From NCBI GenBank assembly GCA_964291285.2, contig OZ219787.1:1088001-1152000 (forward strand): a DNA stretch of 64,000 bases. The letters are read 5' to 3'. The DNA comes from Alphaproteobacteria bacterium. GTDB lineage: Bacteria > Pseudomonadota > Alphaproteobacteria > Bin95. This document shows positions 1 through 64,000 of this stretch, piece by piece. A program made the translations under genes and the position numbers. Under the pieces are notes generated by a model that was not told where the DNA came from, ran no database searches, and saw only the letters and a program-made list of their open reading frames with translations. Each line of letters opens with the position of its first letter. Positions within the stretch are counted from its first letter, which is position 1.

Positions 1-383
1 GCGAAATCGCCCGGCCGCACCAGAAGGCGCGGGCCCGGCACCGGCGAGAAGGGCACGGCGGACAGCAGCTTCGGGTAGTAGCGCCCGCCCGCGCGCTCAT
101 AGGCATGCGCCCAGCCATGGTCGAAGACATATTCGCCGTAGCTGTCGCCGCGCATGTAGAAGGGGGCGACGCCGGACACGCGGCCCGCTTCGTCCTCGAC
201 CACGAGATGCTGCGGCAGCCAGCCGGTATCGGCCCCGACGGCGCCGCCGTCTTCCAGCGCCTTCAGGAAGGCATGGGAAACGAAGGGGTTCCCGTCCCCG
301 GCGCAGGCGTCCCAGTCCTGCGCCGGGACCGCGTCGATGGCCGGCGCGATCCGGACGGAGATCGGTTCCTTGCCGTCGGGCAC
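1..383 (-). CDS. FemAB-like/GNAT family protein (DUF482/COG3146 type), 5' part; runs off the window
   Basis: Not in the ORF track. Manual translation from GTG 383 gives MPDGKEPISVRIAP...WDACAGDGNPFVSHAFLKALE...HLVV...DSYGEYVFDHGWAHAYERAGGRYYPKLLSAVPFSPVPGPRLL, which are typical family motifs. Confidence 0.85.
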   Translation of the reverse strand, partial: MPDGKEPISVRIAPAIDAVPAQDWDACAGDGNPFVSHAFLKALEDGGAVGADTGWLPQHLVVEDEAGRVSGVAPFYMRGDSYGEYVFDHGWAHAYERAGGRYYPKLLSAVPFSPVPGPRLLVRPGDF

Positions 384-389
384 GGGGGG

Positions 390-854
390 TCAGTCGATCT
401 CGAACACGGCATCGACCTCGACCGCGAAGCCCATCGGCAGGGACGGCGCGCCGACGGCGAAACGGGCATGGCGGCCCGTCTCGCCGAATATCTCGACGAT
501 GAGGTCGGAGGCGCCGTTCACGACCTGGGGATGCTGGACGAAGTCCGGCGTACAGTTGACGAAGCCGCCGAGCTTGACGACCCGCGCCACCCGGTCGAGG
601 TCGCCCCCGCAGCCTGCCTTCGCCTGCGCGATGAGGTTGAGCGCGCAGGCCCTGGCCGCGGCCACGCCCTCGTCGAGGCCGAGATCGTCCCCGAGCCGGC
701 CCTTGTGGATGCCCTGGTTGTTGCCCGAAACCTGTCCCGCCACGAACAGCAGCTTGCCGCTCCGGACCCAGGGCACGTAGTTGGCGGCGGGCGCGGGCGC
801 CTCCGGCAGCTCGATGCCGAGTTCGGCGAGGCGGGCGTCGATCTTTCCGGCCAT
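390..854 (-). CDS. RidA/YjgF family protein
   Basis: ARLAELGIELPEAPAPAANYVP...VNGASDL...GRHARFAVG..LP.GFAVEVD; start moved to ATG 854. Confidence 0.9.
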   Translation of the reverse strand: MAGKIDARLAELGIELPEAPAPAANYVPWVRSGKLLFVAGQVSGNNQGIHKGRLGDDLGLDEGVAAARACALNLIAQAKAGCGGDLDRVARVVKLGGFVNCTPDFVQHPQVVNGASDLIVEIFGETGRHARFAVGAPSLPMGFAVEVDAVFEID

Positions 855-874
855 GAAGGGGTCTCCGCTTGGGG

Positions 875-2266
875 TCAGGGGGTGGGCGCCGGCCGCGGGT
901 CGATCGCCGGCAGGGAGCCGACCGCTTCCTCGATGATGCGGCCTGCCGCGATCGCCATGTCTTCCCGCCTGACCGGCGCGACGATCTGGAGGCCGACCGG
1001 CATGCCGTTCGGAGCGAGGCCGGCCGGGATTGCCAGGATCGGGCATGACGTCAGCACCGTGCCCCAGCATTGCTGGAACCAGGGCGGCGGCGCCTCGGAC
1101 CACTCGTCCACCCGGGGGCCGCGCTCCTCGACCGAAAAGGCCGTGCAGCAGACCGTCGGCATGACGATGACATCGACCTGTTCGAAGGCGTCGGACAGAC
1201 GCTGGAACACGGCCGCGCGCTCCCGCTCGGCCCAGATGAAGTCCTCGGCCGTGAGCGTGTTCGCATAGTCGAGCAGCAGCCCCAGCACACGCTCCAGCTT
1301 CTCGCGGTTTTCCCGAATGAAGTCGGCGCGCTCGATCAGCGTGTTGTGGCCGATCATCACCGAGAACAGCCGGGCCATGTCTCCGAAATCGAGCGCGAGC
1401 GGCTCGACCGGAATGTCCAGCTTCGCAAGCGCCGCCTCGACGACGGCGGCAATCTCCGGTTCGACGCCGCCGAGGCCGATATCGGCGACATAACCGATCC
1501 GGGCCGGCCGTTTGCCTTCGGCCCGGAAGGAGCCCTCGTAATCCGGCAGGCTCAGCGGGTCGCTCGGCAGGTAGCCGGCCATGGCGTCGAGGAACAGCGC
1601 GATGTCGTTCACCGAACGCGCCATCGGGCCCTGCACCGACATCGGGTTGAAGCAGCGGTGGGAGTGGGTGCGCGGCACGCGGCCGGGGCTCGGGCGCAGG
1701 CCGCAGACGCCCGCGAAGGCGGCCGGAATGCGCAGGCTGCCGCCTATGTCGGAGCCGTGCGCGAGCGGCACTTCGCCCGCCGCCAGCGCCGCCGAGGCAC
1801 CGCCCGACGAGCCGCCGGGCGTCGTCTCCAGGTTCCAGGGGTTGCGCGTGTGGCCGAACACCCGGTTCGTCGTCACGGGCATCATGCCCATTTCCGGCGA
1901 GCTCGACTTGGCGACGACGATGCCGCCGCGCGCCTCCAGCCGGGTCACGAGCGGGTCGGACTTGTCCGCCACATTGTCGGCATATAACGGGCAGCCGTAG
2001 GTCGTCCGCATGCCTTCGACGTCGATCAGGTCCTTGATTGCGATCGGCAGGCCGGCGAGCAGCCCCCGGTCGCCGGGCGGGATGTCCTGAAGCCGCCTCG
2101 CGTCATCGCGGGCCCGCTCGAAGCGGTGCAGCGGCAGGGCGTTCACCGCCCCGTCCACGGCCTCGATCCGGGCAACGGACGCGTCCACAAGCTCCAGCGG
2201 CGACACCTCGCCCGCCGTCAGCCGGCGGACCGCTTCCCCCGCAGACAGTTCCCAGAGTTCGGCCAT
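875..2266 (-). CDS. Amidase signature family protein
   Basis: C-terminal half of ORF 875..3799: GLPIAIKD, TPGGSSGG, GSDIGGSLRIPA; ATG 2266 is preceded by GGGAGAG. Confidence 0.92.
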   Translation of the reverse strand: MAELWELSAGEAVRRLTAGEVSPLELVDASVARIEAVDGAVNALPLHRFERARDDARRLQDIPPGDRGLLAGLPIAIKDLIDVEGMRTTYGCPLYADNVADKSDPLVTRLEARGGIVVAKSSSPEMGMMPVTTNRVFGHTRNPWNLETTPGGSSGGASAALAAGEVPLAHGSDIGGSLRIPAAFAGVCGLRPSPGRVPRTHSHRCFNPMSVQGPMARSVNDIALFLDAMAGYLPSDPLSLPDYEGSFRAEGKRPARIGYVADIGLGGVEPEIAAVVEAALAKLDIPVEPLALDFGDMARLFSVMIGHNTLIERADFIRENREKLERVLGLLLDYANTLTAEDFIWAERERAAVFQRLSDAFEQVDVIVMPTVCCTAFSVEERGPRVDEWSEAPPPWFQQCWGTVLTSCPILAIPAGLAPNGMPVGLQIVAPVRREDMAIAAGRIIEEAVGSLPAIDPRPAPTP

Positions 2267-2320
2267 GGGACTCTCCCCTCGCAACACGGCTACTATAGCC
2301 CGAAAGCGGGAGCGGGGAAC

Positions 2321-4498
2321 GTGGCAGGAAGGCGCGAAGACGCCCGGTTCATAACCGGACAGGGCCGCTATCTGGACGACATCGAGGTTCCGGGGGCGTT
2401 CTGGGCGGCGTTCGTCCGCAGCCCGCACGCGCATGCCCGCATCCGGGCCGTCGAGGGCAACGGCGCGCCGGTCTTCACCGCGGCGGACATTGCCGGTCTC
2501 GGGGGCCTGCGGCCCTACCAGCCCGCCAACATGCAGACGGGCGAACCGTTCGACTGCGAGCCGCAGCCGCTGCTGGCGCAAGATACCGCACGCTATGCGG
2601 GTCAGCCGGTCGGCTTCGTCACCGGGGCCACGCCGGACGAGGCCCAGGATGCGGCCGACCGGGTGCGGGTCGTCTATGAGGCGCTGGACCCGGAGCCGGA
2701 AAGAGCCTGCCTCGATTGGCGGACGGGCGACGGCGAGGCCGTGGACGCGGCGTTCTCCCGCGCCGCCCACCGGGTCGGGATCGCGCTCCTGAACCATCGC
2801 GTGGTCATCAACCCGATGGAGCCGCGGGGCGCGGCCGGCTTCTACGACCCGGCGGACGGGCGCTACACGCTTCGGCTGTCCAGCCAGAACCTGCATGTCA
2901 ACCGCGACCATGTGGCGGCATGCCTCGGCGTGGAGCCCGGGCGGGTCCGCTTCATCGCGGAGGACGTGGGCGGAGGCTTCGGCGTCAAGAATTTCGCCTA
3001 TCCGGAGTATCCGCTGCTGCTCTGGGCGGCCCGGCGGCTGGGCCGTCCCGTGCGCTGGACGGCCACGCGCTCCGAGGTGTTCCTGACCGACCATCAATGC
3101 CGGGGCCAGCGGGCCGAAGCCGAGCTTGCGCTCGACTCGGAAGGGCGCTTCCTCGCGCTCAGGGTCGCGAGCACGGCGAATGCAGGTGCATGGTTCGGCA
3201 ATGTCGCGGGCGGCGTCCAGACCGGGCAGTTCGTCCATCTGGCGGGCACGGTCTATGCCATTCCGGCCGTCGCTCTGCATATCAGCGCCGTGCTCACCAA
3301 TACGCCGCCCGAGGGCGTGACGCGCGGCCCCGGTTTCGCCGAAATGGTGAACATTCTCGAAAGGCTGATCGACAAGGCGGCGGCGGAAACCGGCATTGCC
3401 CGGGAAGAGCTCAGGCGTCGAAATCTTGTGTCCAGCCTGCCGATGACGAATGCGCTCGGCTTCACCGTGGACAGCGGCGCCTTCCGGGAGGGCTTTGCGC
3501 TTGCCGAGCAGAGCGCCGGGGGCTTCGCGGAGCGCCGGCGCGGGAGTGAGGGGGCGGGCCTGCTGCGCGGGCTCGGCTTCGCCTGCCACATCAAGGCCAC
3601 CGGCGGCTACCCGGAGGAGAATGTCGAACTGCGCTTCCGCGAGGACGGCAGCGTAGACCTCGTGACCGGCACGCAGCATATCGGCCAGGGGCACGAAACC
3701 ACCTTCCCCGAAATCGTGGCCCGCTGCCTCGACCTGCCGAGCGGCGGCATCCGGCTCGTCCAGGGCGACACGGACGAGATCGCCATGGGAGGCGGCCACG
3801 GCTCCTCACGTGCGACCTACATGGCCGGCACGGCGATTTTCCGCGCGAGCGAGATCGTCATCGAGAAGGGCCGGGCGCTGGCGGCAGACCGGCTGGAGGC
3901 GGCGGAGACCGACATCGAATACGAAGCAGGCGCATTCCGCGTCGCTGGCACGGACCGGGCGGTCGGCCTGTTCGAACTCGCCGGAGACGGTGCGCTCGAC
4001 ACTTATTACCACTGGGCGCGGGAATGGATGACCTTCCCGAACGGCACCCATCTGGCGGAAGTCGAGATCGACCCGGAGACAGGGACCGTGCGCCTGGTCC
4101 GCTATGCGGCCTTCGACGATTACGGTGAGCATATCGACGACGCCATCGTTGCCGGCCAGGTGCATGGCGCCATCGCGCAGGGCGTCGGGCAGGCCCTGCT
4201 GGAAGAGGCGGCGTTCGAACCGGAAACGGGCCAGCCGCTTACCGGCTCCTTCATGGACTACGCCATGCCGCGCGCCGACGACCTGCCGCCTTTCGACATC
4301 GCGTTTACACCGACGCGGTGCACGACCAATCCGCTGGGCGTAAAGGGTTGCGGAGAGGCCGGAGCCATCGCCGGATACCCCGCCGTCACCAACGCCATTC
4401 TCGATGCGCTGGCGCCGCTCGGCGTCACGCGCTTCGAGGGAGCCGCCAGCCCGTTCCGCATCTGGCGCGCGATCCGGGAAGCGGCGGAGCGGACCTGA
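2321..4498 (+). CDS. Xanthine dehydrogenase/CoxL-like molybdopterin-binding subunit
   Basis: [58 protein letters not shown]; the GTG start is inferred. Confidence 0.9.
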
Positions 4499-4638
4499 AA
4501 CCGGGATTTGCGGGCCGTGCCGTTTCGACGCCTGGCCGACGAGCCCTTTGGCGATTCCGCCTGTTCCGCCGACCGCGACTCGCCTATTCTGTGCGCGGAG
4601 AGCGACGCTTCCGCGAACCCGTTGGAGAAAACCGGAAA

Positions 4639-5640
4639 ATGCTGGACGCGATTCCTGTGTTGAGTCCGTTTTCGGTGTTCGTGCTCATCGTGCTGGTCTT
4701 CGCCGTGGCGCTCGTCTTCATGGGCGTGAAGACGGTCCCGCAGGGCTTCGAGTTCACGGTGGAACGCTTCGGCCGCTACATACGGACGCTGGCACCCGGA
4801 CTGCATCTCATCGTCCCCATCGTGGACCGTATCGGCCAGCGCCAGAATGTGATGGAGCAGGTGACCGACGTGCCGTCGCAGGAGATCATCACCCGCGACA
4901 ACGCCATGGTGACCGTCGACGGCGTGGTGTTCTTCCAGATTCTGGACGCGGTGAAGGCGTCCTACGAGGTGCGCCGCCTCGAAATCTCGATCCTGAACCT
5001 GACCATGACCAATATCCGGACGGTCATGGGCTCCATGGACCTGGACGAGCTGCTGTCGCAGCGCGACAAGATCAACGCCGAGCTGCTGAAGGTAGTGGAC
5101 GAGGCGACCGCGCCCTGGGGCGTCAAGATCACCCGCATCGAGATCAAGGACATCACCCCGCCCGCCCAGCTGGTGGACGCCATGGCGAGGCAGATGAAGG
5201 CCGAGCGGGAGAAGCGCGCCGTCATCCTGGAGGCCGAGGGTGTGAGGCAGGCGGAAATCCTGCGCGCCGAGGGGCAGAAGCAGGCGGCGATCCTGGATGC
5301 GGAAGGCCGGCGCGAGGCGGCGTTCCGCGACGCCGAGGCGCGCGAACGCGAGGCCGAGGCGGAAGCGCGCGCCACCGAAATGGTCTCGAAGGCCATCGGG
5401 GAGGGCAATGTCCAGGCGATCAACTATTTCGTCGCCCAGAAATACGTCACGGCGCTGGAAGGCATTGCCAGCGCCCGCAACCAGAAGGTCGTGCTGATGC
5501 CGCTTGAGGCTTCCGGCGTGATCGGCGCTCTCGCGGGCCTCACCGAGATCGCGAGGGAAGCCTTCGGCAAGGACGGGGAGTCGGACCCGTCCGCCCCGCG
5601 CCGGGGACGCTCGGTGCCGCCTTCCGGTTCCGGCGCCTGA
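4639..5640 (+). CDS. qmcA: SPFH/Band 7 domain membrane protein (QmcA-like)
   Basis: N-terminal TM segment, [30 protein letters not shown]; paired with NfeD. Confidence 0.9.
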
Positions 5641-55816: not shown

Positions 55817-58800
55817 ATGGCGGAAGGGACATTCAGGGCGGCGGCCGAGGCGTATTTCGCTGGCCTCGCGCGCGTGCAGGCGTCCGGCGGCGCAACGGCT
55901 GAGCGGTCCTACTATGGGCCGCTCAACAACCTGTTGAATGCGGTCGGCCAGACTCTCAAGCCCAAGGTTTTCTGTATTCAGGAGCTTGCCGAACAAGGCG
56001 CGGGCCATCCCGATTTCGGCCTCTATGCGGCGAAGCAGGTGCGCAAGGGAGAGCCGCGCGAGGGCCAGCTTCCCGAATGCGGCGTCGTCGAGGTGAAACC
56101 CGTCGGGGACGATGCCTGGATGACGGCTGATTCGGATCAGGTCAGCCGCTATCGGGGCCGCTACCGGCTGGTGCTGGCGACCAACTTGCGGGATTTTGTG
56201 CTGGTCGGCGAAGCCGGCGCCGGCCACCCGGCGAAGCTCGAAACCTTCCGGCTGGCGGAGAGCGCGGAGGACTTCCGCTGCAAGCTGGAGACGCCGCGCG
56301 CCTTCGCAAGCGAAACGGGCGTTCGCCTCGGCGAATATCTCGCCCGCGCGCTCTCGCACCGGGCGGCGCTTGCCGAACCGAAGGACCTCGCCCGCCTGCT
56401 CGCTTCCTATGCCCGCGATGGCCTCGCGCGGGTCGAAGCGGCGGGTGATGCACCGTCTCTTGAGACTGTACGGTCGGCGCTGGAGGAAGCGCTCGGCGTG
56501 CGCTTCGAGGGCGAGAAGGGCGCGCGCTTCTTCCATTCCACGCTGGTACAGACGCTCTTCTACGGCGTCTTCTCCGCCTGGGTGCTGTGGGCGCGGCAGC
56601 GGCCCCCGCCGGCGGGCGGTTTCGACTGGCGCACCGCCGTCTGGCACTTGCGCGCGCCGGTGCTGCGGGGGCTGTTCCAGCAATTGTCCGACCCCGGCCG
56701 GTTACAGCCTCTCGGCCTCGTCGAGGTGCTGGACTGGACAGCCGCCGCGCTCGACCGCGTGGACCGGCCGGCCTTCTTCTCCCGTTTCGCCGAGGGCGAG
56801 GCGGTTCCCTATTTCTACGAACCTTTCCTGGAGGCCTTCGACCCCGCGCTCCGCAAGCAGTTGGGTGTCTGGTACACGCCCCCGGAAGTGGTCCGCTACA
56901 TGGTCGCCCGCGTGGACCGGGCGCTGAAGGACGATCTCGGCATCCCGGAAGGTCTGGCGGCGGAGAACGTCTATGTGCTGGACCCCTGCTGCGGCACCGG
57001 GGCCTATCTGGCGGAGGTGCTGCGGCGGATCGCAGCAAACTATCTCGAAGCCGGCAGAGGCGCGCTCACCGGTGTGCTGGTGCGGCGAGCGGCGACGGAG
57101 CGGGTGTTTGGCTTCGAGATTATGCCCGCCCCCTTCGTCGTCGCGCATCTTCAGGTTGGTCTGACCATGCAGGAGTTAGATGCGCCGCTCGCCGACGACG
57201 AGACCGAACGTGCTGGCGTGTTCCTCACCAATGCGCTGACCGGCTGGGAGCCTCGTACGACCAAACCGCTGCCCTTCCCGGAACTGGAGGAGGAGCGCGA
57301 CCGAGCCGAGCGGGTGAAGCGGGACACACCGATCCTCGTTGTTCTCGGCAACCCGCCCTATAACGGTTTCGCGGGCATGGCCGTCGAGGAGGAACGCGAG
57401 CTTTCGGACGCCTACCGGACGACGAAGCGGGTGCGAAAGCCTGAAGGCCAGGGCCTGAATGACCTCTATGTCCGCTTTTTCCGTATGGCGGAACGGCGCA
57501 TTGCAGAAAAGACCGGTCAGGGCGTGGTCTGCTTCATTTCCAACTACTCTTGGCTGGACGGGCTTTCCTTCACCGGCATGAGGGAGCGCTATCTCGAAGC
57601 GTTCGACGCGGTGCGGATCGACTGCCTCAACGGCGATAAATACAAGACCGGCAAGATCACTCCGGACGGCTTGCCCGATCCGAGTATCTTTTCGACCGAA
57701 GGCGATCCCGTCGGCATTCAGGTCGGCACAGCCATCACGACACTGGTGCGCAAGGCAGAGCACAAGCCGAATACCGCCGTCGAATTCCGGCATCTTTGGG
57801 GACAGGAGAAACTGGCGACCCTGATCGCAACGGCGGAGGCGGAGCCGGATGCGCTATACGGGAATGTCGAATCGATCCTGCCGCTGGGCCTTCCCTTCGT
57901 GCATGCTGAGGTGAGGGCCGACTGGTTCCAATGTCCAGCACTGCCCGATCTGTTTCCGTCATACTTTCCAGGCGTTGTTACCAACCGTGATGCTTTTCTC
58001 GTGGATACCGACCTCGACCGCTTGAAGGCAAGAATCGCCGACTATTTCGATGCGAGACTTAGCCACGAAGAGATTGCACAGCGCTATCCGGTTGCGATGA
58101 AGACCACGACGTCCATTCGACTCCGCGCCCGTGAAATTCGTGATTTGCGGGTTATGCGAGGCAAGCCAAGTGCAACCGGCTTCATTCGATATGCATTCAG
58201 GCCATTTGATAACCGATGGCTCTATTGGGAGGCAGAATCGGGCCTACTTGCTCGCCCAAGTCCAGATTACAGACCGCACGTTTTCGAGGAAAATTATTCA
58301 TTGGTTTCGCAACAGAAGCCACGCCGGGATTGGTCTCCACCCCAATTTATCTCGAATATGGGCTGCTATGATTTGATGGATCGCAATGTTTCTTGTTTTC
58401 CCGTTTGGCTTCGCGGCAACGGAATCGAGGGAGATGAAAATGGCACACGCTTCCCAAATTTGTCTCGCACCGCGCACCGCTTTCTCGACCGCTTGGGCCT
58501 CGGTGTCGAAGATCTGTTCCACCATGTCCTTGCCGTCCTGCACGATCCGGCTTACCGTGAAGCCAACGCCGGGGCGCTGCGCATGGGCTGGCCGCGTATC
58601 CCGCTGCCCGGCTGGCCGGATGGCGGAATCAAGGGCGTGGCCGAGGATTTGGCGGGGTCGGCGGCGCGCGGGCGTGACCTAGCGGCGTTGCTCGACCCCG
58701 AAACTCCCGTCCCCGGCGTGACGCAAGCGCCGCTCCGCCCGGAGATCGAGGTCATCGCCGCCGTCACAGCCATAGACGGAGGCTACATTAAAGGAGAAGA

Positions 58801-59182
58801 TTTTGCCGTAACCGCCGGTTGGGGCCATCTCGGGCAGGGCGACGCCGTAATGCCCGGCCAGGGCCGCGCCGTCGAACGCCCCTTCACCCCAGAGGAGCGC
58901 GTCACCATGGGCGATGCGCTGCCCGCGCTCGGCGAGACCACCTTCGACATATACCTCAACGCCAACGCATATTGGCGCAATGTGCCCGCCGCCGTCTGGA
59001 ACTACAAGCTGGGCGGTTATCAGGTCCTCAAGAAATGGCTCTCCTACCGCGAACGGAAGGTTCTCGGCCGCTCCCTGCGGATCGAGGAGGTGCAGGACTT
59101 TGCGGAGACAGCACGGAGAATCGGGGCCATTCTGTGCCTCGTTGACCCTGATGTCGCGACTTCAAAGTCGATCTCCGGATGA
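55817..59182 (+). CDS. Single-chain restriction-modification enzyme (type IIG / helicase-less type ISP-like)
   Basis: N-terminal GHPDFG..VVEVK nuclease motif; GVWYTP.EVV, VLDPCCGTG, GNPPY; C-terminal YKLGGYQVLKKWLSYRE as in type ISP specificity domains. Confidence 0.88.
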   Translation: MAEGTFRAAAEAYFAGLARVQASGGATAERSYYGPLNNLLNAVGQTLKPKVFCIQELAEQGAGHPDFGLYAAKQVRKGEPREGQLPECGVVEVKPVGDDAWMTADSDQVSRYRGRYRLVLATNLRDFVLVGEAGAGHPAKLETFRLAESAEDFRCKLETPRAFASETGVRLGEYLARALSHRAALAEPKDLARLLASYARDGLARVEAAGDAPSLETVRSALEEALGVRFEGEKGARFFHSTLVQTLFYGVFSAWVLWARQRPPPAGGFDWRTAVWHLRAPVLRGLFQQLSDPGRLQPLGLVEVLDWTAAALDRVDRPAFFSRFAEGEAVPYFYEPFLEAFDPALRKQLGVWYTPPEVVRYMVARVDRALKDDLGIPEGLAAENVYVLDPCCGTGAYLAEVLRRIAANYLEAGRGALTGVLVRRAATERVFGFEIMPAPFVVAHLQVGLTMQELDAPLADDETERAGVFLTNALTGWEPRTTKPLPFPELEEERDRAERVKRDTPILVVLGNPPYNGFAGMAVEEERELSDAYRTTKRVRKPEGQGLNDLYVRFFRMAERRIAEKTGQGVVCFISNYSWLDGLSFTGMRERYLEAFDAVRIDCLNGDKYKTGKITPDGLPDPSIFSTEGDPVGIQVGTAITTLVRKAEHKPNTAVEFRHLWGQEKLATLIATAEAEPDALYGNVESILPLGLPFVHAEVRADWFQCPALPDLFPSYFPGVVTNRDAFLVDTDLDRLKARIADYFDARLSHEEIAQRYPVAMKTTTSIRLRAREIRDLRVMRGKPSATGFIRYAFRPFDNRWLYWEAESGLLARPSPDYRPHVFEENYSLVSQQKPRRDWSPPQFISNMGCYDLMDRNVSCFPVWLRGNGIEGDENGTRFPNLSRTAHRFLDRLGLGVEDLFHHVLAVLHDPAYREANAGALRMGWPRIPLPGWPDGGIKGVAEDLAGSAARGRDLAALLDPETPVPGVTQAPLRPEIEVIAAVTAIDGGYIKGEDFAVTAGWGHLGQGDAVMPGQGRAVERPFTPEERVTMGDALPALGETTFDIYLNANAYWRNVPAAVWNYKLGGYQVLKKWLSYRERKVLGRSLRIEEVQDFAETARRIGAILCLVDPDVATSKSISG

Positions 59183-59205: not shown

Positions 59206-60276
59206 ATGTCACTTATGGCTGAAAACAATACACCGAATGATCCATCAGTCTTTCTGAGAGAAATGGTGGAAGCTATGGATAGGCAGAAAAGACAAAAAAT
59301 AGAACGTTGTATTGCTCACTTGAGCACATACGAAATTCCTACTCCCAGCCATATTTGTCGGACTATAAATTCCTTGATAGGGCATGAAAGACAAAATGTG
59401 TTAAGTTATCATCCGTTTTGGAAAGAGCAAGCTTTACGTCAAGGATTGGCGTCTCTTATTCATGCTTCTCATCAAGCATCTATGGACATTTGTCGTCACG
59501 ATGCTGCGTTGGGAGAATTGGCTCGTTCGGAAAACTTCCAAGACGGCGTGGACCTTTACGTTAGTTTCCCTTCACAAAAGGATACGGTTGCTTACTGCGC
59601 ACTGGCGATGGGGGTCAAAAGCACGCTTAAAGAGATTCAAGGTCTGCGTACAGACATTTGTGATGAGTTAGGTAAGTTAGTTGATAACTTGTTCGATGAG
59701 GATATTTCGCAATTCATTCGAGAGTTAAGAAATAATCTGCTTCATGGCCGAATAGTCATTCCGCAATGGGAGATTTCGTATAGCAATGAAAAAGGAAGAA
59801 ATGCTGGTTCTATGGTGTACAATATAGAAAATCTATTGCGTTCCGGTCATTGGAACGAGGAGGCCAAAAGATACATTCTGTCTTCCCAAGATGAGAAGAT
59901 CAATTTGTCTTCAGTAATTCGCGACCACTTTAAAGTGATGAACGATTTGTACCGCTCTGTCAATAGTATGTTTTTCAAAAATATTACTCTTGTGGAGAAA
60001 GATTTCCATGACATAGAAGATACTCACAAGAAACAGGTGCGGACCCAATGGGCTAGGATATTGGTTGAACAAGCTGCGGTCGGAAAGAATCCTTACGATC
60101 ACCTCCATAGTTTCTTTGATCCTGAAACCGTGCGCGAGATATTACGTCTGCCTCCACATAGTAGGGAACAGGTGGATTTCATCATTTCATTGAAGTCTGC
60201 TGAAATTGACTGGGACGATAGACTGCGGAATACGATGTACAAAATATTCGGAGTTGCGGATTACACAGATACATAA
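59206..60276 (+). CDS. AT-rich hypothetical protein with HEPN-like RxxxxH motif
   Basis: 356-aa ORF, visibly far more AT-rich than the host; helical-looking sequence with ELRNNLLH. Confidence 0.7.
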   Translation: MSLMAENNTPNDPSVFLREMVEAMDRQKRQKIERCIAHLSTYEIPTPSHICRTINSLIGHERQNVLSYHPFWKEQALRQGLASLIHASHQASMDICRHDAALGELARSENFQDGVDLYVSFPSQKDTVAYCALAMGVKSTLKEIQGLRTDICDELGKLVDNLFDEDISQFIRELRNNLLHGRIVIPQWEISYSNEKGRNAGSMVYNIENLLRSGHWNEEAKRYILSSQDEKINLSSVIRDHFKVMNDLYRSVNSMFFKNITLVEKDFHDIEDTHKKQVRTQWARILVEQAAVGKNPYDHLHSFFDPETVREILRLPPHSREQVDFIISLKSAEIDWDDRLRNTMYKIFGVADYTDT

Positions 60277-60326: not shown

Positions 60327-60644
60327 TTACGCGACCGCTCCGAGGCCGTTCCGGGCGACCAGGGTCAGCAGCTTCAGCGATGCGCCGCGGGGCCGCCTCT
60401 CGCCCCGCTCCCACTGGCTCACAAGGCCCGTCGTCACATTGAGGTGGCGGGCGAACACCGCCTGGCTCGCATTCTCCCGCAGGCGGATTTCGCGAATCCT
60501 CTCCGGCGCCATGTCCTCGACCGGCGTCAGACACATCCCGTCGAAGGCCCTCATGGTCCGCTTCGCCATGACGCCCGCCTCCGCCATGCCCTGCGCGGTC
60601 TCATGCACCGACGCCAGTACCGGGCTTCCGTATCGCCTAGCCAT
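60327..60644 (-). CDS. HigA2/YiaG-like Xre-HTH antitoxin
   Basis: SVHETA.GM, TMRAFD..CL, IR.IR....SQAVFA..LNV....VSQWERG.RRP.G.SLKLL. Confidence 0.9.
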   Translation of the reverse strand: MARRYGSPVLASVHETAQGMAEAGVMAKRTMRAFDGMCLTPVEDMAPERIREIRLRENASQAVFARHLNVTTGLVSQWERGERRPRGASLKLLTLVARNGLGAVA

Positions 60645-60906
60645 CGCAGTCCACCTCGCCGATGGTCCCGTTCTTCAGCACCGCTTCCAGACCGGGGCCG
60701 TCCAGCCCCAGCATTTCGTCCGCCAACGCCCGCAAAGCCCTGAGTTCGTCGCGCCGGAGGTTCTCCCGGTCGCTCTTCGCAAACCCGTGGACAAAAAACG
60801 CGAGTTCCCCCCGGCGCAACGGCAGGATCGCACGCACGCCCCCGGATTTGCCCCGGCCCGGCCGGGCGATGCGCTGCTTGATGACCCCGCCGCCGCCGTC
60901 CGGCAC
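60637..60906 (-). pseudogene. RelE/HigB2-like toxin, 5'-truncated
   Basis: GGGVIKQRIARPGRGKSGG.R, FFVHGFAKSDRENL; the N-terminal RIFKT...-type segment is absent and IS630 sequence lies upstream. Confidence 0.8.
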
Positions 60907-60939
60907 TACCGCCTCGGCAGTTTCCGTGCGGGGGGCCGT

Positions 60940-61159
60940 CCGTGCTTGCGAAGGGCGATGCCGCGGCGCGTGAGGAAGTTCCGTATCGCGACCCGGCTGA
61001 AGACAAGGCCGCCCGCCTCAAGCGCCCGGCGCAGCTCCGCCAGGGTGAAGCCCGGATTTTCGTCCAGGATGCCCAGAACGGCGTCGCGCGCCGCCTCGAT
61101 CTTCCACGAGCGGGTGTCGCCGCCCATCGGCCTGGGCCCCGGATGCCCCTGTTCGCGTT
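60940..61159 (-). pseudogene. IS630-family transposase N-terminal (HTH) remnant
   Basis: REQGHPGPRPMGGDTRSWKIE...ILDENPGFTLAELRRAL..GLVFSRVAIRNFLTRRGI; cut off at 61159 and no DDE domain. Confidence 0.75.
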
Positions 61160-61219
61160 TGTTAGCGACGGTTACAGAGCGCGCCTATTCGCTGACATTT
61201 TTCGGCCGGTTGCGGTTTT

Positions 61220-62092
61220 TCAGTTGATCTGTTGGTCATCGGTTTCGATTGGTTCGCCGGCTCGGTCGCGGATGAGCATGTCGTTCCAGTCCCGGTTGTC
61301 GAGTGCGGGTCGCAGCCGGACGATTCTGGTGTCGTTGCGGGCGAGGCGCCTTGCGGCGTGATCGCCGTTTGTGGTGGCGTCGTATGCACAGAAGATGAGG
61401 CGCGGGTTCCATGCCTCGATCCATTTGGGGACTTTGGTGGCGACGGCGCCGGTGGAGACGGTGGCGCATTCGGTGCGTTTTACCGGGCCGAGGTGGAGGG
61501 AGAGGATGGAGAGTGCGTCGAGGGCGTTGCCGGCCAGGATGACGGCGTGTGGCCATTCGGTCTCCCAGGACATCCAGAAGCCGCCGCCCGCGGTCGTTTT
61601 GCGGTCAGCGGTGACGGTTTCGATGCCGGTAGCCTCGCCGGCGGCGTTTCGGCGGACGAACACGGGGTTGCCGTGAGGGTCGGCATGGACCAGGCCGAGG
61701 TCGCGGCACAGGGTGACGAGCGCGTCCGCGAGGCCGCGCCGCTCGACGAGGTATCGCCGGAGGTTGGGCCAGCGGGGGTCCTTGGCCGGCGCCTGCCGGC
61801 GGCCGCCTGGGGGCATTGAGAGGTCGGACAGTTCGGCGAGGAAGTCGATGGCGTCCGGCGGGGTGCATCCGAGCGCATGGACCGCCAGTTCGATAGCCCC
61901 GGCTCCCTCCTCTGCGCGCAGATGGTCGTAGAACATGAAGCGGTTGATGGAGAGGACCGATCCTGGCCGTCTCCAGCGCACGGCATTGTCGGGATCGCTG
62001 CGGTAGCCGAGGGCTCGGGCGACGGGTTCGAGGGGATAGCCCCGCAGGCTCTCGGCCCGCACCCGCCGCTCGCGGGGGCGGGAGGGATGCAT
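61220..62092 (-). CDS. DUF3991/Toprim-like (primase-related) protein, degenerate acidic motifs
   Basis: LEPVARALGY, FYDH....GAGAIELA.H, RYLVERRGL, GLVHAD..GNPVF, ILAGNALDALS, VSTG, FCAYDA...GD.AA, RLRP...DWNDML; ATG lies 2 bp after the istB stop. Confidence 0.75.
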   Translation of the reverse strand: MHPSRPRERRVRAESLRGYPLEPVARALGYRSDPDNAVRWRRPGSVLSINRFMFYDHLRAEEGAGAIELAVHALGCTPPDAIDFLAELSDLSMPPGGRRQAPAKDPRWPNLRRYLVERRGLADALVTLCRDLGLVHADPHGNPVFVRRNAAGEATGIETVTADRKTTAGGGFWMSWETEWPHAVILAGNALDALSILSLHLGPVKRTECATVSTGAVATKVPKWIEAWNPRLIFCAYDATTNGDHAARRLARNDTRIVRLRPALDNRDWNDMLIRDRAGEPIETDDQQIN

Positions 62093-62094
62093 GG

Positions 62095-62889
62095 CTATGG
62101 CGACGGGACCGGGTTCGCCTTTCCAGTGCTTTGCCCGGCTTTCGGTCCGCGCCGGCGGCGGCGTTCGGCGCTGCGCTGCTTCTGACGTTCCTCGGCTTCC
62201 TTGCGGCGCCAGGAGTCGCCGTCGATGGCGACGATCTCGGCGTTGTGGACGAGCCGGTCGACGAGGGCGACCAGGCAGGCGGCGTTTGGGAAGGCCTCGC
62301 TCCACTCGGCGAAGGGGCGGTTCGTGGTGATTATGGTTGAGTTCTGCTGGCTGCGGCTTGAGACGATGTTGAACAGCAGGTCGGCGTGGCGGTTGGAGTA
62401 GGAGAGATATCCGACTTCGTCGATGACCAGCAGGTGCTGTCGGGCGTAGAAGCGCAGCCTGCGCTGGAGCAGGGTGTCGGAGTCGATGGCGGCGAGTTCG
62501 CCGAGCAGGCTGGCGGCGGTTGCGAAGCGCACGATGTGGCCTTCGAGGACGGCGCGGTGGGCGATATTGGCGGCGATGGTGGACTTTCCGACGCCGTTGG
62601 GTCCGACCAGTACGAGGTTTGCGGCCTCCTTGAGGAAGTCGAGGGTCATGAGGTCCTCGACGGCCATGCGGTCGCAGCGCCTTGGCCAGTCCCAGTCGAA
62701 GTCTGCGAGCGGCTTGAACTGTCCGAGGCGGGCGTCGGCGAGGCGGCGTTTGAGGCTTCGGGCGCGCTTCTCATCTTCTTCCCACGCGATCAGGGAGGCG
62801 AGCCAGTCGCGCTCCGCGACTTCGCCCCAATGGGCGAGGAGGCCGTGCAGGCCCAGCGCGCGGGCGCGGTTCATGAGGGTGTCGGTCAT
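62095..62889 (-). CDS. istB: IS21 helper ATPase IstB
   Basis: LADFDWDW, GPNGVGKS, LLVIDEVGY, IITTN, LVDRLVH, GDSWR. Confidence 0.95.
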   Translation of the reverse strand: MTDTLMNRARALGLHGLLAHWGEVAERDWLASLIAWEEDEKRARSLKRRLADARLGQFKPLADFDWDWPRRCDRMAVEDLMTLDFLKEAANLVLVGPNGVGKSTIAANIAHRAVLEGHIVRFATAASLLGELAAIDSDTLLQRRLRFYARQHLLVIDEVGYLSYSNRHADLLFNIVSSRSQQNSTIITTNRPFAEWSEAFPNAACLVALVDRLVHNAEIVAIDGDSWRRKEAEERQKQRSAERRRRRGPKAGQSTGKANPVPSP

Positions 62890-64000
62890 TCTTCGCTGTC
62901 CTTTTCATGGTAGCCGGCCAGCCCGTCGTATCCGCCGAGATCGTGATCGCGCACGGCGATGTCGCGCACGCGCGGGTCCCTGGGCAGGTCGATGGGGATC
63001 GGCGGCGGCCTGTCCTGCAGTTCGCGCCGCCGTGTGAGGCTGAGGCGCACGGCATTGGGATGGGGGACGCCGCGTTCGAGGGCCTCGTCGATGGCGGCTT
63101 CGAGCTCGGCGGCGCCGTATTGGTCGAGCAGGCGCAGCAGGGCGGCGACGGTGGCGCCGATATAAGCGCCGCGGGGGGCGGCCTCGGCGATCAGGCGCTC
63201 GCTGTTGGGCGCGGCCTGGAGCAGCCGGCTCTGCCCGCGCAGGCTGCGGGCGTGACGCTTGCGCCTGACCAGCTCCTCAATGTGTTCGGGGTTCTCGATG
63301 CGGGCCGCCTTGTCGAAGCTGCGCGGATGGCGGGCGATGACCTCCATGCCGTCGAGGATGCGCACCTCTTCCAGCGTCGCGGCCACGGTGAGGGTGCGCC
63401 GGACATGGGTATGCGGGACGCTGTAGTCATTGAGGTCGAACCTGGCATAGGGGGTCTTGGCGATCCTGACCTCGACCCTCTCGTCGACGGGGGGACGGTC
63501 GTCGGGCAGCGCCATCAGGGAGCCGCGCTCGCGCTCGAAGGCCTCGCTCACGGTGAGGGAGCGGTCGTCCGGCCAGGGGCGGTCGGCGGCGACGCCCTCG
63601 CACCACTCCCGGGCCTGGGCGTTGAGATCGTCGAGGTCACGCCAGGCGCGGGCGGCGAAGAAGCTGTCGCGCACATAGCGTATGGCCCGCTCGACGCGGC
63701 CCTTCTCGTTGCCTCGGGCGACCGCGACCGGCTTCGGCAGGAAGCGGTAGGCGCCTGCGAAGTCGAGAAGCCGGGGATTGAAGCGGATGGCGTCGCCGCG
63801 CCGCTCCAGCACGACGCTCTTCAGATTGTCGTACCAGAGCTCGCGGGGCACGCCCTGCCAAGCCTCGAAGGCCTCGACATGGCCGCGCAGGAAGTTGTCC
63901 ATCCCGGCGTTGAGGTAGAAGCGCAGGAAGAGGCGGCGCGAGTGGCCGAGCACCATCACGAAGGCCATCAGCGGGCGCTCCGCACGCCCGATCCTCACCT
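62886..64000 (-). CDS. istA: IS21 transposase IstA (3' part)
   Basis: FVMVLGHSR, GVPRELWYDNLKS, KGRVER..RYVR, FDLNDYSVP; ATGA overlap with istB. Confidence 0.95.
   Translation of the reverse strand, partial: VRIGRAERPLMAFVMVLGHSRRLFLRFYLNAGMDNFLRGHVEAFEAWQGVPRELWYDNLKSVVLERRGDAIRFNPRLLDFAGAYRFLPKPVAVARGNEKGRVERAIRYVRDSFFAARAWRDLDDLNAQAREWCEGVAADRPWPDDRSLTVSEAFERERGSLMALPDDRPPVDERVEVRIAKTPYARFDLNDYSVPHTHVRRTLTVAATLEEVRILDGMEVIARHPRSFDKAARIENPEHIEELVRRKRHARSLRGQSRLLQAAPNSERLIAEAAPRGAYIGATVAALLRLLDQYGAAELEAAIDEALERGVPHPNAVRLSLTRRRELQDRPPPIPIDLPRDPRVRDIAVRDHDLGGYDGLAGYHEKDSEE

Follow-up and report, generated by a model that had tools for sequence, protein, structure and literature searches.

A stretch of 64,000 nucleotides (nt) from an alphaproteobacterial genome (GenBank assembly GCA_964291285.2, contig OZ219787.1, positions 1,088,001 to 1,152,000), hereafter the window, was found to carry at its right-hand edge the larger part of an insertion sequence (IS) of the IS21 family, whose last gene, orf3, encodes a protein (ORF3) with a predicted primase-like fold. 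Positions were counted in the window; those beyond 64000 are window-equivalent positions lying outside it, and L001 denotes the numbering of the extended locus. The element at 61160-65208 is a recently active, autonomous IS21-family IS carrying four tightly spaced genes in the order orf0-istA-istB-orf3, all on the minus strand, and there can be hardly any doubt that it is a genuine four-gene IS.

The extent of the element was determined by a search of the host's own genome (6.1 Mb in 5 contigs), with positions 61000-64000 as the query and then with a query lengthened past the window. The similarity between copies ended at query position 2841, which corresponds to window position 61160, at at least 20 other places with about 100% identity. 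With the lengthened query, the repeated unit was 4049 bp long (window-equivalent 61160-65208, L001:1661-5709), and the window contains its right-hand 2841 bp (61160-64000). The element ends in TGT...ACA, and the termini are imperfect inverted repeats (IRs), each beginning with TGT. The right end consists of 60 nt of non-coding DNA with the right terminal IR (61160-61219, minus strand, ...ACA on the gene strand), as defined by the copy borders and the IR match to the left end; the left end, 381 nt with the left IR, lies outside the window. A TGT at 61160, about 60 nt past the end of ORF3, had been taken as the terminus in the original prediction, which was made from the window sequence. This was confirmed as the true end, since copy similarity stops there, and the matching far IR was located at window-equivalent 65208. 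The window copy lies between direct repeats of 5 bp (AACGC on the gene strand), one of which reads gcgtt at 61155-61159 on the plus strand; the other copy of this target-site duplication (TSD) was found just past the far end, outside the window.

The proposal that the element had cut an IS630 frame at 61160 was also borne out. When one copy of the duplication is discounted, the flanks join as one continuous IS630-like transposase N-terminal (helix-turn-helix, HTH) frame, which resumes beyond the far end. The downstream part of this split region occupies 60906-61159 on the minus strand and matched Pfam HTH_Tnp_Tc3_2 (E 0.0019). The IS630-like region is itself a remnant, because its frame stops at 60906.

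The istA gene encodes a DDE transposase of 501 amino acids (aa) that starts at 64391 (L001:3387-4892), and its 3' 370 codons lie in the window (62886-64000, minus strand). Pfam Mu-transpos_C_2 (E 2e-24) and an N-terminal HTH_23 (E 3e-4) were detected in IstA, together with rve at E 1.3e-4, which is below the cut-off. The istB gene (62095-62889, minus strand) encodes an AAA+ helper ATPase of 264 aa, identified by Pfam IstB_IS21 (E 9e-55) and by the NCBIfam model IS21_help_AAA (NF038214, 208.1 bits against a cut-off of 200). As predicted, istA and istB overlap by ATGA (tcat at 62886-62889 on the plus strand), and the 290-aa ORF3 (61220-62092, minus strand, stop codon at 61220-61222) begins with the ATG at 62092, 2 nt past the istB stop codon TAG at 62095-62097. 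The fourth gene, orf0 (144 aa, window-equivalent 64393-64827, L001:4894-5328, minus strand), lies beyond the window edge, within the leftmost 817 nt of the element, and its stop lies 1 nt before the istA ATG. The three-gene transposon with a primase-derived gene that had been envisaged was thus correct as to a coupled, apparently primase-derived gene inside an IS21 and incorrect as to the number of genes, which is four, with the Cys-rich orf0 upstream of istA. No sigma-70-like site was returned by a promoter scan of the element (0 sites).

ORF3 lies inside the element, because the copy borders and the inverted-repeat ends enclose it, 60 nt from the right end. An IR between istB and the ORF had been named beforehand as evidence against such an arrangement. 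No IR-like site was found there, and the only sites resembling the terminal 24-mers had 8 mismatches and were located inside istB.

Full-length copies numbered 18 in the host genome, which is far more than chance would give. Sixteen of them measured exactly 4049 bp and showed 0-2 mismatches against the window copy, the other 2 measured 4058 bp, and the four ORFs were intact in 18/18. The flanks differed at each copy. Under a strict test, a perfect 5-bp target duplication was present in 12/18 copies. Of the remaining six, one had a duplication of 7 bp, one a 5-bp repeat shifted by one base and one a repeat with a single mismatch; a 4058-bp copy had no clean repeat, and two C4 copies carried each other's flanks, CTTCC and CCCTG. 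These C4 copies (about 400813-406562 and 645215-649263) are in opposite orientation, and the swapped flanks therefore indicate an inversion of about 245 kb by recombination between oppositely oriented IS copies. The 4058-bp sub-variant (C1:441022-445079 and C2:1195356-1199413), with its four genes intact, is distinguished by a duplication of 9 bp in the non-coding DNA at the left and by the change A187D in ORF3, adjoining the former Toprim Glu position. Four further copies were interrupted by insertions (C1:646398-652147, C3:466531-472491, C4:400813-406562 and C1:1162814-1166997), which were about 1.7-1.9 kb long with 7-8-bp overlaps, one being only about 130 bp. The genome also contained a degraded, older copy at about 94% identity, as well as fragments comprising two solo right ends of 70 bp and two pieces of the left end. 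With local GC skew taken as a guide to replication direction, the orientation of 9/10 C3 copies opposed the skew and that of the C1, C2 and C4 copies did not, the skew being weak.

The second alternative of the original prediction, a larger integrative element mobilised by IS21, is not supported, the repeated unit being exactly 4049 bp. These copies also bear on the reading that ORF3 belongs to a larger integrative element or plasmid fragment beside which an ordinary two-gene IS21 inserted. Only the usual plasmid context of the domain family speaks for this reading. It is refuted by the repeated unit of exactly 4049 bp with ORF3 inside, by the differing flanks and by the missing internal IR, to which the istB-ORF3 gap of 2 nt can be added, and the probability left to it is negligible.

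The linkage of ORF3 to the transposition genes was then evaluated by a one-genome-per-species scan with an ORF3 alignment, from which 151 pattern matches and 109 confirmed relatives were obtained; the best 80 of the 109 were kept, corresponding to 79 loci in 22 other assemblies. Nearly all of these assemblies were alphaproteobacterial metagenome-assembled genomes, and several held 10-20 copies each. In this best-80-of-109 set, a piece of istB was present within 200 nt upstream of the ORF3 relative in 77/79 loci and a full istB in 72/79, in agreement with the expected istA-istB-ORF3 synteny in other genomes. The complete order orf0-istA-istB-orf3 was found in 61/79 loci, and the rest were cut by contig ends, interrupted, or internal deletion derivatives. 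Moreover, in five other multi-copy genomes the borders obtained by copy comparison enclosed ORF3, giving elements of 4086-4283 bp with TGT..ACA ends and 5-7-bp duplications.

Two other kinds of locus were encountered in these comparisons. L028 (and also L031) are internal deletion derivatives in which orf0 and ORF3 were kept and most of istA and istB was gone; these may be non-autonomous copies. A single sequence, P0030, gave Pfam matches to both IstB and DUF3991 and was considered as a fusion. It was rejected and is not a Rosetta stone, because it is a broken istB 3' piece running into the ORF3 frame.

Spacing and selection were analyzed in 15 elements, namely the window element and one locus chosen by us from each of 14 assemblies. 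The orf0-istA gap was 1 nt in 11/15 elements (-4, 2, 10 and 10 in the others), the istA-istB gap was -4 in 15/15, and the istB-orf3 gap was 0-12 nt in 14/15 and 32 nt in one. The median pairwise ratio of non-synonymous to synonymous substitution rates (dN/dS; Nei-Gojobori, 105 pairs) was 0.41 for orf0, 0.34 for istA, 0.26 for istB and 0.57 for orf3. Inside ORF3, the three folded parts showed 0.48-0.65 (Toprim domain 0.48, zinc-binding-domain (ZBD)-like domain 0.50) and the tail 0.38, compared to 1.11 for the inter-domain linker, which served as an internal neutral yardstick. Identity co-variation gave Spearman coefficients of 0.81-0.87 for ORF3-IstA and 0.72-0.81 for IstA-IstB, values that are descriptive only, as the pairs are not independent. 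Judged by these comparisons, both extra genes, orf0 and orf3, are conserved under purifying selection and have diverged in step with the transposase.

The protein encoded by orf0 is Cys-rich and Arg-rich, with 63-90% identity among related elements. In an alignment of 24 sequences, the Cys residues at 10, 13, 20, 23, 30, 34, 123 and 126 were invariant and a basic helix was conserved. In the AlphaFold2 (AF2) model, which was partly confident (predicted local distance difference test, pLDDT, 69.6), the middle was disordered; two long helices (pLDDT >90) and small beta-hairpin modules at the N- and C-termini were seen. The protein had no Pfam family (best E 0.17) and no PADLOC or PHROG family. 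Its 150 homologous clusters in a large protein collection were all unnamed, the Atlas clusters being all 'hypothetical'. Foldseek gave no match at E <=0.001, the best being the YacG zinc finger at E 2.4.

In ORF3, DUF3991 (PF13154) was matched with 28.0 bits, above the cut-off of 24.5, and Toprim_2 (PF13155) with 19.3 bits, under the cut-off of 22.1, the Toprim fold being backed by structure comparison. The AF2 model, built with 26 homologues, had a pLDDT of 85.7 and a predicted template modelling score of 0.84. Residues 97-290 were aligned by VIA-align to the T7 gp4 primase (1nui/1q57/5ikn) with Z 11.3-11.4 over 168-170 residues and to DnaG catalytic cores with Z 9-11, and residues 4-91 to the zinc-binding domain of DnaG (1d0q) with Z 6.4. 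The best Foldseek matches were DnaG primases, Twinkle and the T7 gp4 primase fragment, with E 3e-5 to 2au3. According to the model, ORF3 is built like a primase fragment: a ZBD-like domain is followed by the DUF3991 part, which corresponds to the N-terminal subdomain of the RNA-polymerase domain, and by Toprim. Neither a helicase nor a helicase-binding part was found in ORF3, and the N-terminal domain lacked a Cys/His zinc-ligand set, with no Cys in residues 30-66 and only H57, H72 and C76 as conserved candidates. No NCBIfam family was matched by ORF3, the match to PHROG 510 'DNA primase' reached only E 0.0024, and no PADLOC defence family was matched by the element. An acidic C-terminal tail (residues about 276-290, window 61223-61267) was conserved only in the clade with a degenerate Toprim motif and was absent from the canonical relatives; it might be a partner-binding peptide. 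The predicted IstB-ORF3 complex scored 0.00 against a mark of 0.32, which counts neither for nor against binding.

The Toprim motifs are altered, as had been noticed in the original prediction. In a profile alignment to E. coli DnaG, whose Toprim residues are E265, D309 and D311, the Toprim Glu was paired with G188, the Asp after it with D192 and the DxD motif with D238-A-T240. Taken alone this alignment is not significant (E 0.23), but it is consistent with the structure comparison. The assignment of G188 to the Glu position and of D238-A-T240 to the DxD was also obtained when canonical relatives were aligned. A motif survey was performed on 75 homologues of 250-330 aa out of 101 proteins, 26 shorter or longer ones being left out. 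The Glu position was occupied by K (29), G (19), A (17), E (4), D (3), N (2) or T (1), and the second Asp of the DxD was lost in 72/75, with T in 69/75. Among representatives at 49% identity or less, 20/21 kept the Glu and 17-18 an intact DxD. The loss of these residues is thus derived in the close clade (about 54% identity or more to ORF3), which stood on a long stem branch (0.64) in a quick tree. On balance, these substitutions incline us to the view that ORF3 acts without primase catalysis.

The same residues could be read differently, with ORF3 still an enzyme (a modified-metal primase, a Toprim-type nuclease or a nucleotidyl transferase) that would act at the transposition intermediate via its remaining acidic residues. 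D192, D238, D244, D265/E, D268 and D271/E were kept in most of the 75 homologues, T240 was conserved rather than drifting, and constraint on the Toprim domain equalled that on the ZBD-like domain. An ancestral priming function is also indicated by the canonical relatives in sister transposons, which in some cases lie beside a RepA-like helicase. However, the Glu position varies as freely as expected of a site that no longer matters, D238 was replaced in about 11/75 homologues in addition to the loss of the second Asp, and the missing zinc set and the long stem branch argue in the same direction. Retained catalysis therefore appears unlikely.

A further possibility is that ORF3 has no present function and merely represents the decay of a gene for a formerly active primase, as the lost catalytic residues and the highest dN/dS of the four genes might suggest. 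This is very improbable. The frame was open in 18/18 copies of this genome and in 15/15 diverged elements with ORF3 identity down to 54%, the folded domains were distinctly more constrained than the linker, and the structural model was confident.

Metagenome contigs were searched with three catalytically canonical relatives (38-43% identical to ORF3), and 26 loci were recovered, of which 2 were of the four-gene type. In 12/26 loci the ORF3 homologue (28-31% identical) was situated directly past a divergent istB (26-35%), and istA (23-32%) was also present in 9; another 12/26 loci were without IstA and IstB matches. L122:372-5507 and L120:199-5334 proved to be the same 5136-bp IS21-like element (99.98% identical, different flanks), in which terminal IRs of 45-50 nt surround a KorB/ParB-like ORF, istA, istB and an ORF3 homologue with canonical Toprim. 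L109 and L123 were examined among the loci without IstA and IstB, and in both, genes for an rve-type transposase and an AAA_22 ATPase are followed by one for an AAA_25 protein with similarity to RepA, the RSF1010 helicase (1g8y, E 4e-7), the ORF3 homologue coming last. The L123 type (about 21-5341) is a discrete unit of about 5.3 kb, which recurred at 89-99% identity in five other contigs and shared with them a right border situated about 118 nt past the ORF3 stop; from its gene content it looks like a transposon with its own helicase-primase pair. Elements with this gene content, including a canonical DUF3991-Toprim protein, were seen at L123, L109, L110, L116, L124, L130, L131 and L133.

Both the Toprim Glu and the DxD were retained in all of the distant transposon-borne copies. 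A quick maximum-likelihood tree was built from 52 sequences, and in it all the transposon-linked copies fell into one group of 39 (Shimodaira-Hasegawa-like approximate likelihood-ratio test, SH-aLRT, 85), apart from the MobV-fused ones. Inside this group, IS21-linked and helicase-transposon-linked copies were interleaved in two sub-groups (support 100 and 98). An approximately unbiased test rejected the placement of all IS21-linked copies together (delta lnL 141.8, p 5e-64), a result weakened by the post hoc naming of the group. The simplest reading of these relationships is that a primase gene became a transposon module and moved between transposon backbones, and that the alphaproteobacterial IS21 clade later lost catalysis.

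Since DUF3991-Toprim proteins are also found on plasmids, it was considered whether ORF3, and perhaps orf0, is cargo acting elsewhere, in plasmid or conjugative-element replication, mobilisation or exclusion. The wider family is a plasmid and conjugation family. The closest plasmid relatives of ORF3 (25-30% identity) were C-terminal parts of MobV relaxases and 'DUF3991 and toprim' proteins, none of the 62 matching plasmid records was above 60% identity to ORF3, and Mob_Pre was present in 5/15 long relatives. In a library clustered at 50% identity, the wider family numbered 624 representatives at E <=0.001, of which only 35 remained at <=1e-30. ORF3 shares the same Pfam domains at full length with the plasmid modules, which are mostly fused to MobV/Mob_Pre. 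Unlike ORF3, a stand-alone protein encoded by the last gene of a transposon, these modules have retained the canonical motifs and occur within relaxases or conjugative regions. Transporter ISs, which are IS derivatives carrying passenger genes, form a known class according to the accessible text of PMC9330008, and the present element resembles them in having extra genes inside the IS ends. Its extra genes differ from variable cargo in being conserved, coupled and co-diverging with the transposase. Cargo genes are usually variable and loosely attached, whereas ORF3 holds a fixed place 0-12 nt past the ATPase gene in 14/15 elements, and its relatives are likewise encoded by the last gene in transposons with IstA and IstB identities of only 23-35%. 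With the existence of sister elements that do without ORF3 on one side and the lack of a PADLOC match on the other, a cargo function seems rather improbable, and ORF3 is probably a dedicated accessory of the element.

The reading we favour over the others, at about even odds, makes ORF3 a non-catalytic accessory factor dedicated to the element and descended from a primase carried by a transposon. Several observations weigh against this interpretation. Firstly, orf3 was the least constrained of the four genes. Secondly, orf0-istA-istB units with IstA 49-62% identical and without ORF3 were found in the genomes G113 (L137) and G240 (L136 and L139; an unpublished genome), on contigs of 3.4-3.5 kb with no ORF3 in the 320-540 nt past istB. 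The two G240 contigs finished in the same ...AACA terminus, and distant orf0 homologues (32-45% identity) lay directly upstream of istA in both genomes. Among 401 same-class genomes, IstA was found at E <=1e-60 only in these two, and no IstA was detected with this query in the same-genus genome G312. Since the sister elements do without it, ORF3 is an add-on and not a core requirement, which agrees with the transposition of canonical IS21 in vitro by IstA and IstB alone, as stated in the accessible parts of PMC10122671 and PMC11208146. Thirdly, the sole trace of ORF3 in RNA libraries was a 243-nt contig (100% identical, window 61499-61741) from a coral metatranscriptome, where DNA carry-over is possible. 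In a second RNA library, contigs covered istB and istA of 85-90% relatives and not ORF3, with the same possibility of carry-over; DNA libraries holding matches at a share of at least 0.2 included sponge and marine metagenomes. Fourthly, the support of the transposon-linked clade (85) is moderate, and the root, large multidomain relatives, was chosen by us. Finally, four of the six acidic positions were mostly kept (D192 73/75, D238 63/75, D268 55/75 and D271 61/75), and together with the conserved T240 they therefore allow for a changed but live active site.

The DNA preceding the element in the window was also inspected. A gene at 55817-59179 on the plus strand encodes a Type ISP/type IIG-like restriction-modification protein (Type_ISP_C, N6_Mtase, Eco57I). 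It is followed by a 356-aa ORF without a Pfam family (59206-60276, plus strand), the region of which is probably foreign DNA, because it lies in an island of 41-46% GC within a genome of 68% GC. A RelE-family toxin gene (Pfam RelE, E 1.5e-24) overlapping an XRE-type HTH antitoxin gene occupies 60327-60906 on the minus strand and adjoins the IS630-like remnant.

Members of the IS21 family in ISfinder have a size of about 1.8-2.6 kb, and their target duplications range from 4 to 8 bp. The present element is like IS21 and IS5376 in its IstA, with an N-terminal HTH, an rve core and a Mu-transposase C-terminal domain, in its IstB, which scored above the NCBI equivalog cut-off, and in the ATGA overlap of istA and istB, the TG..CA-type ends, the imperfect multi-part IRs and the short target duplication. 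It is unlike them in its four coupled genes and length of 4049 bp. The accessible text of PMC10122671 describes the family as two ORFs between two terminal inverted repeats, and because the element departs from this two-ORF definition, it was filed as an IS21-family variant and not as a typical member. ORF3 shares the two-part architecture and fold of the T7 gp4 primase fragment and DnaG (ZBD plus RNA-polymerase domain with Toprim); it differs from them in the absence of zinc ligands, in the changes of Glu to G/K/A and of DxD to D-A-T, and in lacking a helicase domain or a domain that would bind one. SCCmec is an example of an integrated element with a primase and a helicase of its own, the primase of which belongs to another family than ORF3 as far as the accessible text of PMC7581432 goes. 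No description of IS21-type elements with a primase-like or orf0-like gene was found in the literature, ISfinder and TnCentral entries being outside this search.

How a primase-derived protein might serve an IS can be outlined as follows. ORF3 would descend from a transposon-borne primase and would be made together with IstB by translational coupling, which is suggested by its start 2 nt past the istB stop and the lack of an obvious ribosome-binding site. It would no longer make primers and may keep a DNA- or partner-binding role at the transposition complex, acting during or after target capture. By analogy with known systems, it may connect the intermediate of strand transfer with replication or gap repair by the host, or alternatively bias target choice. 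Phage Mu relies on host PriA, DnaB, DnaC and DnaG, and its strand-transfer complex is handed to the host primosome. The accessible text of PMC11208146 reports that the post-transposition complexes of IstA and MuA are highly similar and compares IstB with MuB. A primase-like partner would fit a Mu-like hand-over to replication, as a lead only, for an element known here from its sequence. A wider scheme, which we put forward as speculative and rather doubtful, is that a DnaG-like primase lineage serves as the terminal gene of transposons with a DDE transposase and an ATPase, both IS21-like elements and rve + AAA_22 elements with a RepA-like helicase, so that these elements would bring their own priming or replisome recruitment to a self-supported, Mu-like replicative or repair-coupled transposition; in the four-gene IS21 clade it would have become a pseudo-enzyme adaptor working with the DnaC-like IstB and the zinc-finger-like orf0.

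IS21 is a structural and biochemical model for transposases controlled by AAA+ proteins and has been defined as a two-gene element, whereas this conserved, multi-copy and evidently active clade has four. The elements reach about 20 copies per genome in long-read alphaproteobacterial assemblies and have driven at least one inversion in the host genome. Annotation pipelines will label the genes 'hypothetical' or 'DUF3991' and will mis-size the IS. The canonical relatives, some of which are paired with a helicase, and the degenerate clade provide a comparison for the change of an enzyme into an adaptor. A primase-shaped ORF3 beside a DnaC-like ATPase would be a natural experiment on the joining of transposition to replication, repair and target choice.

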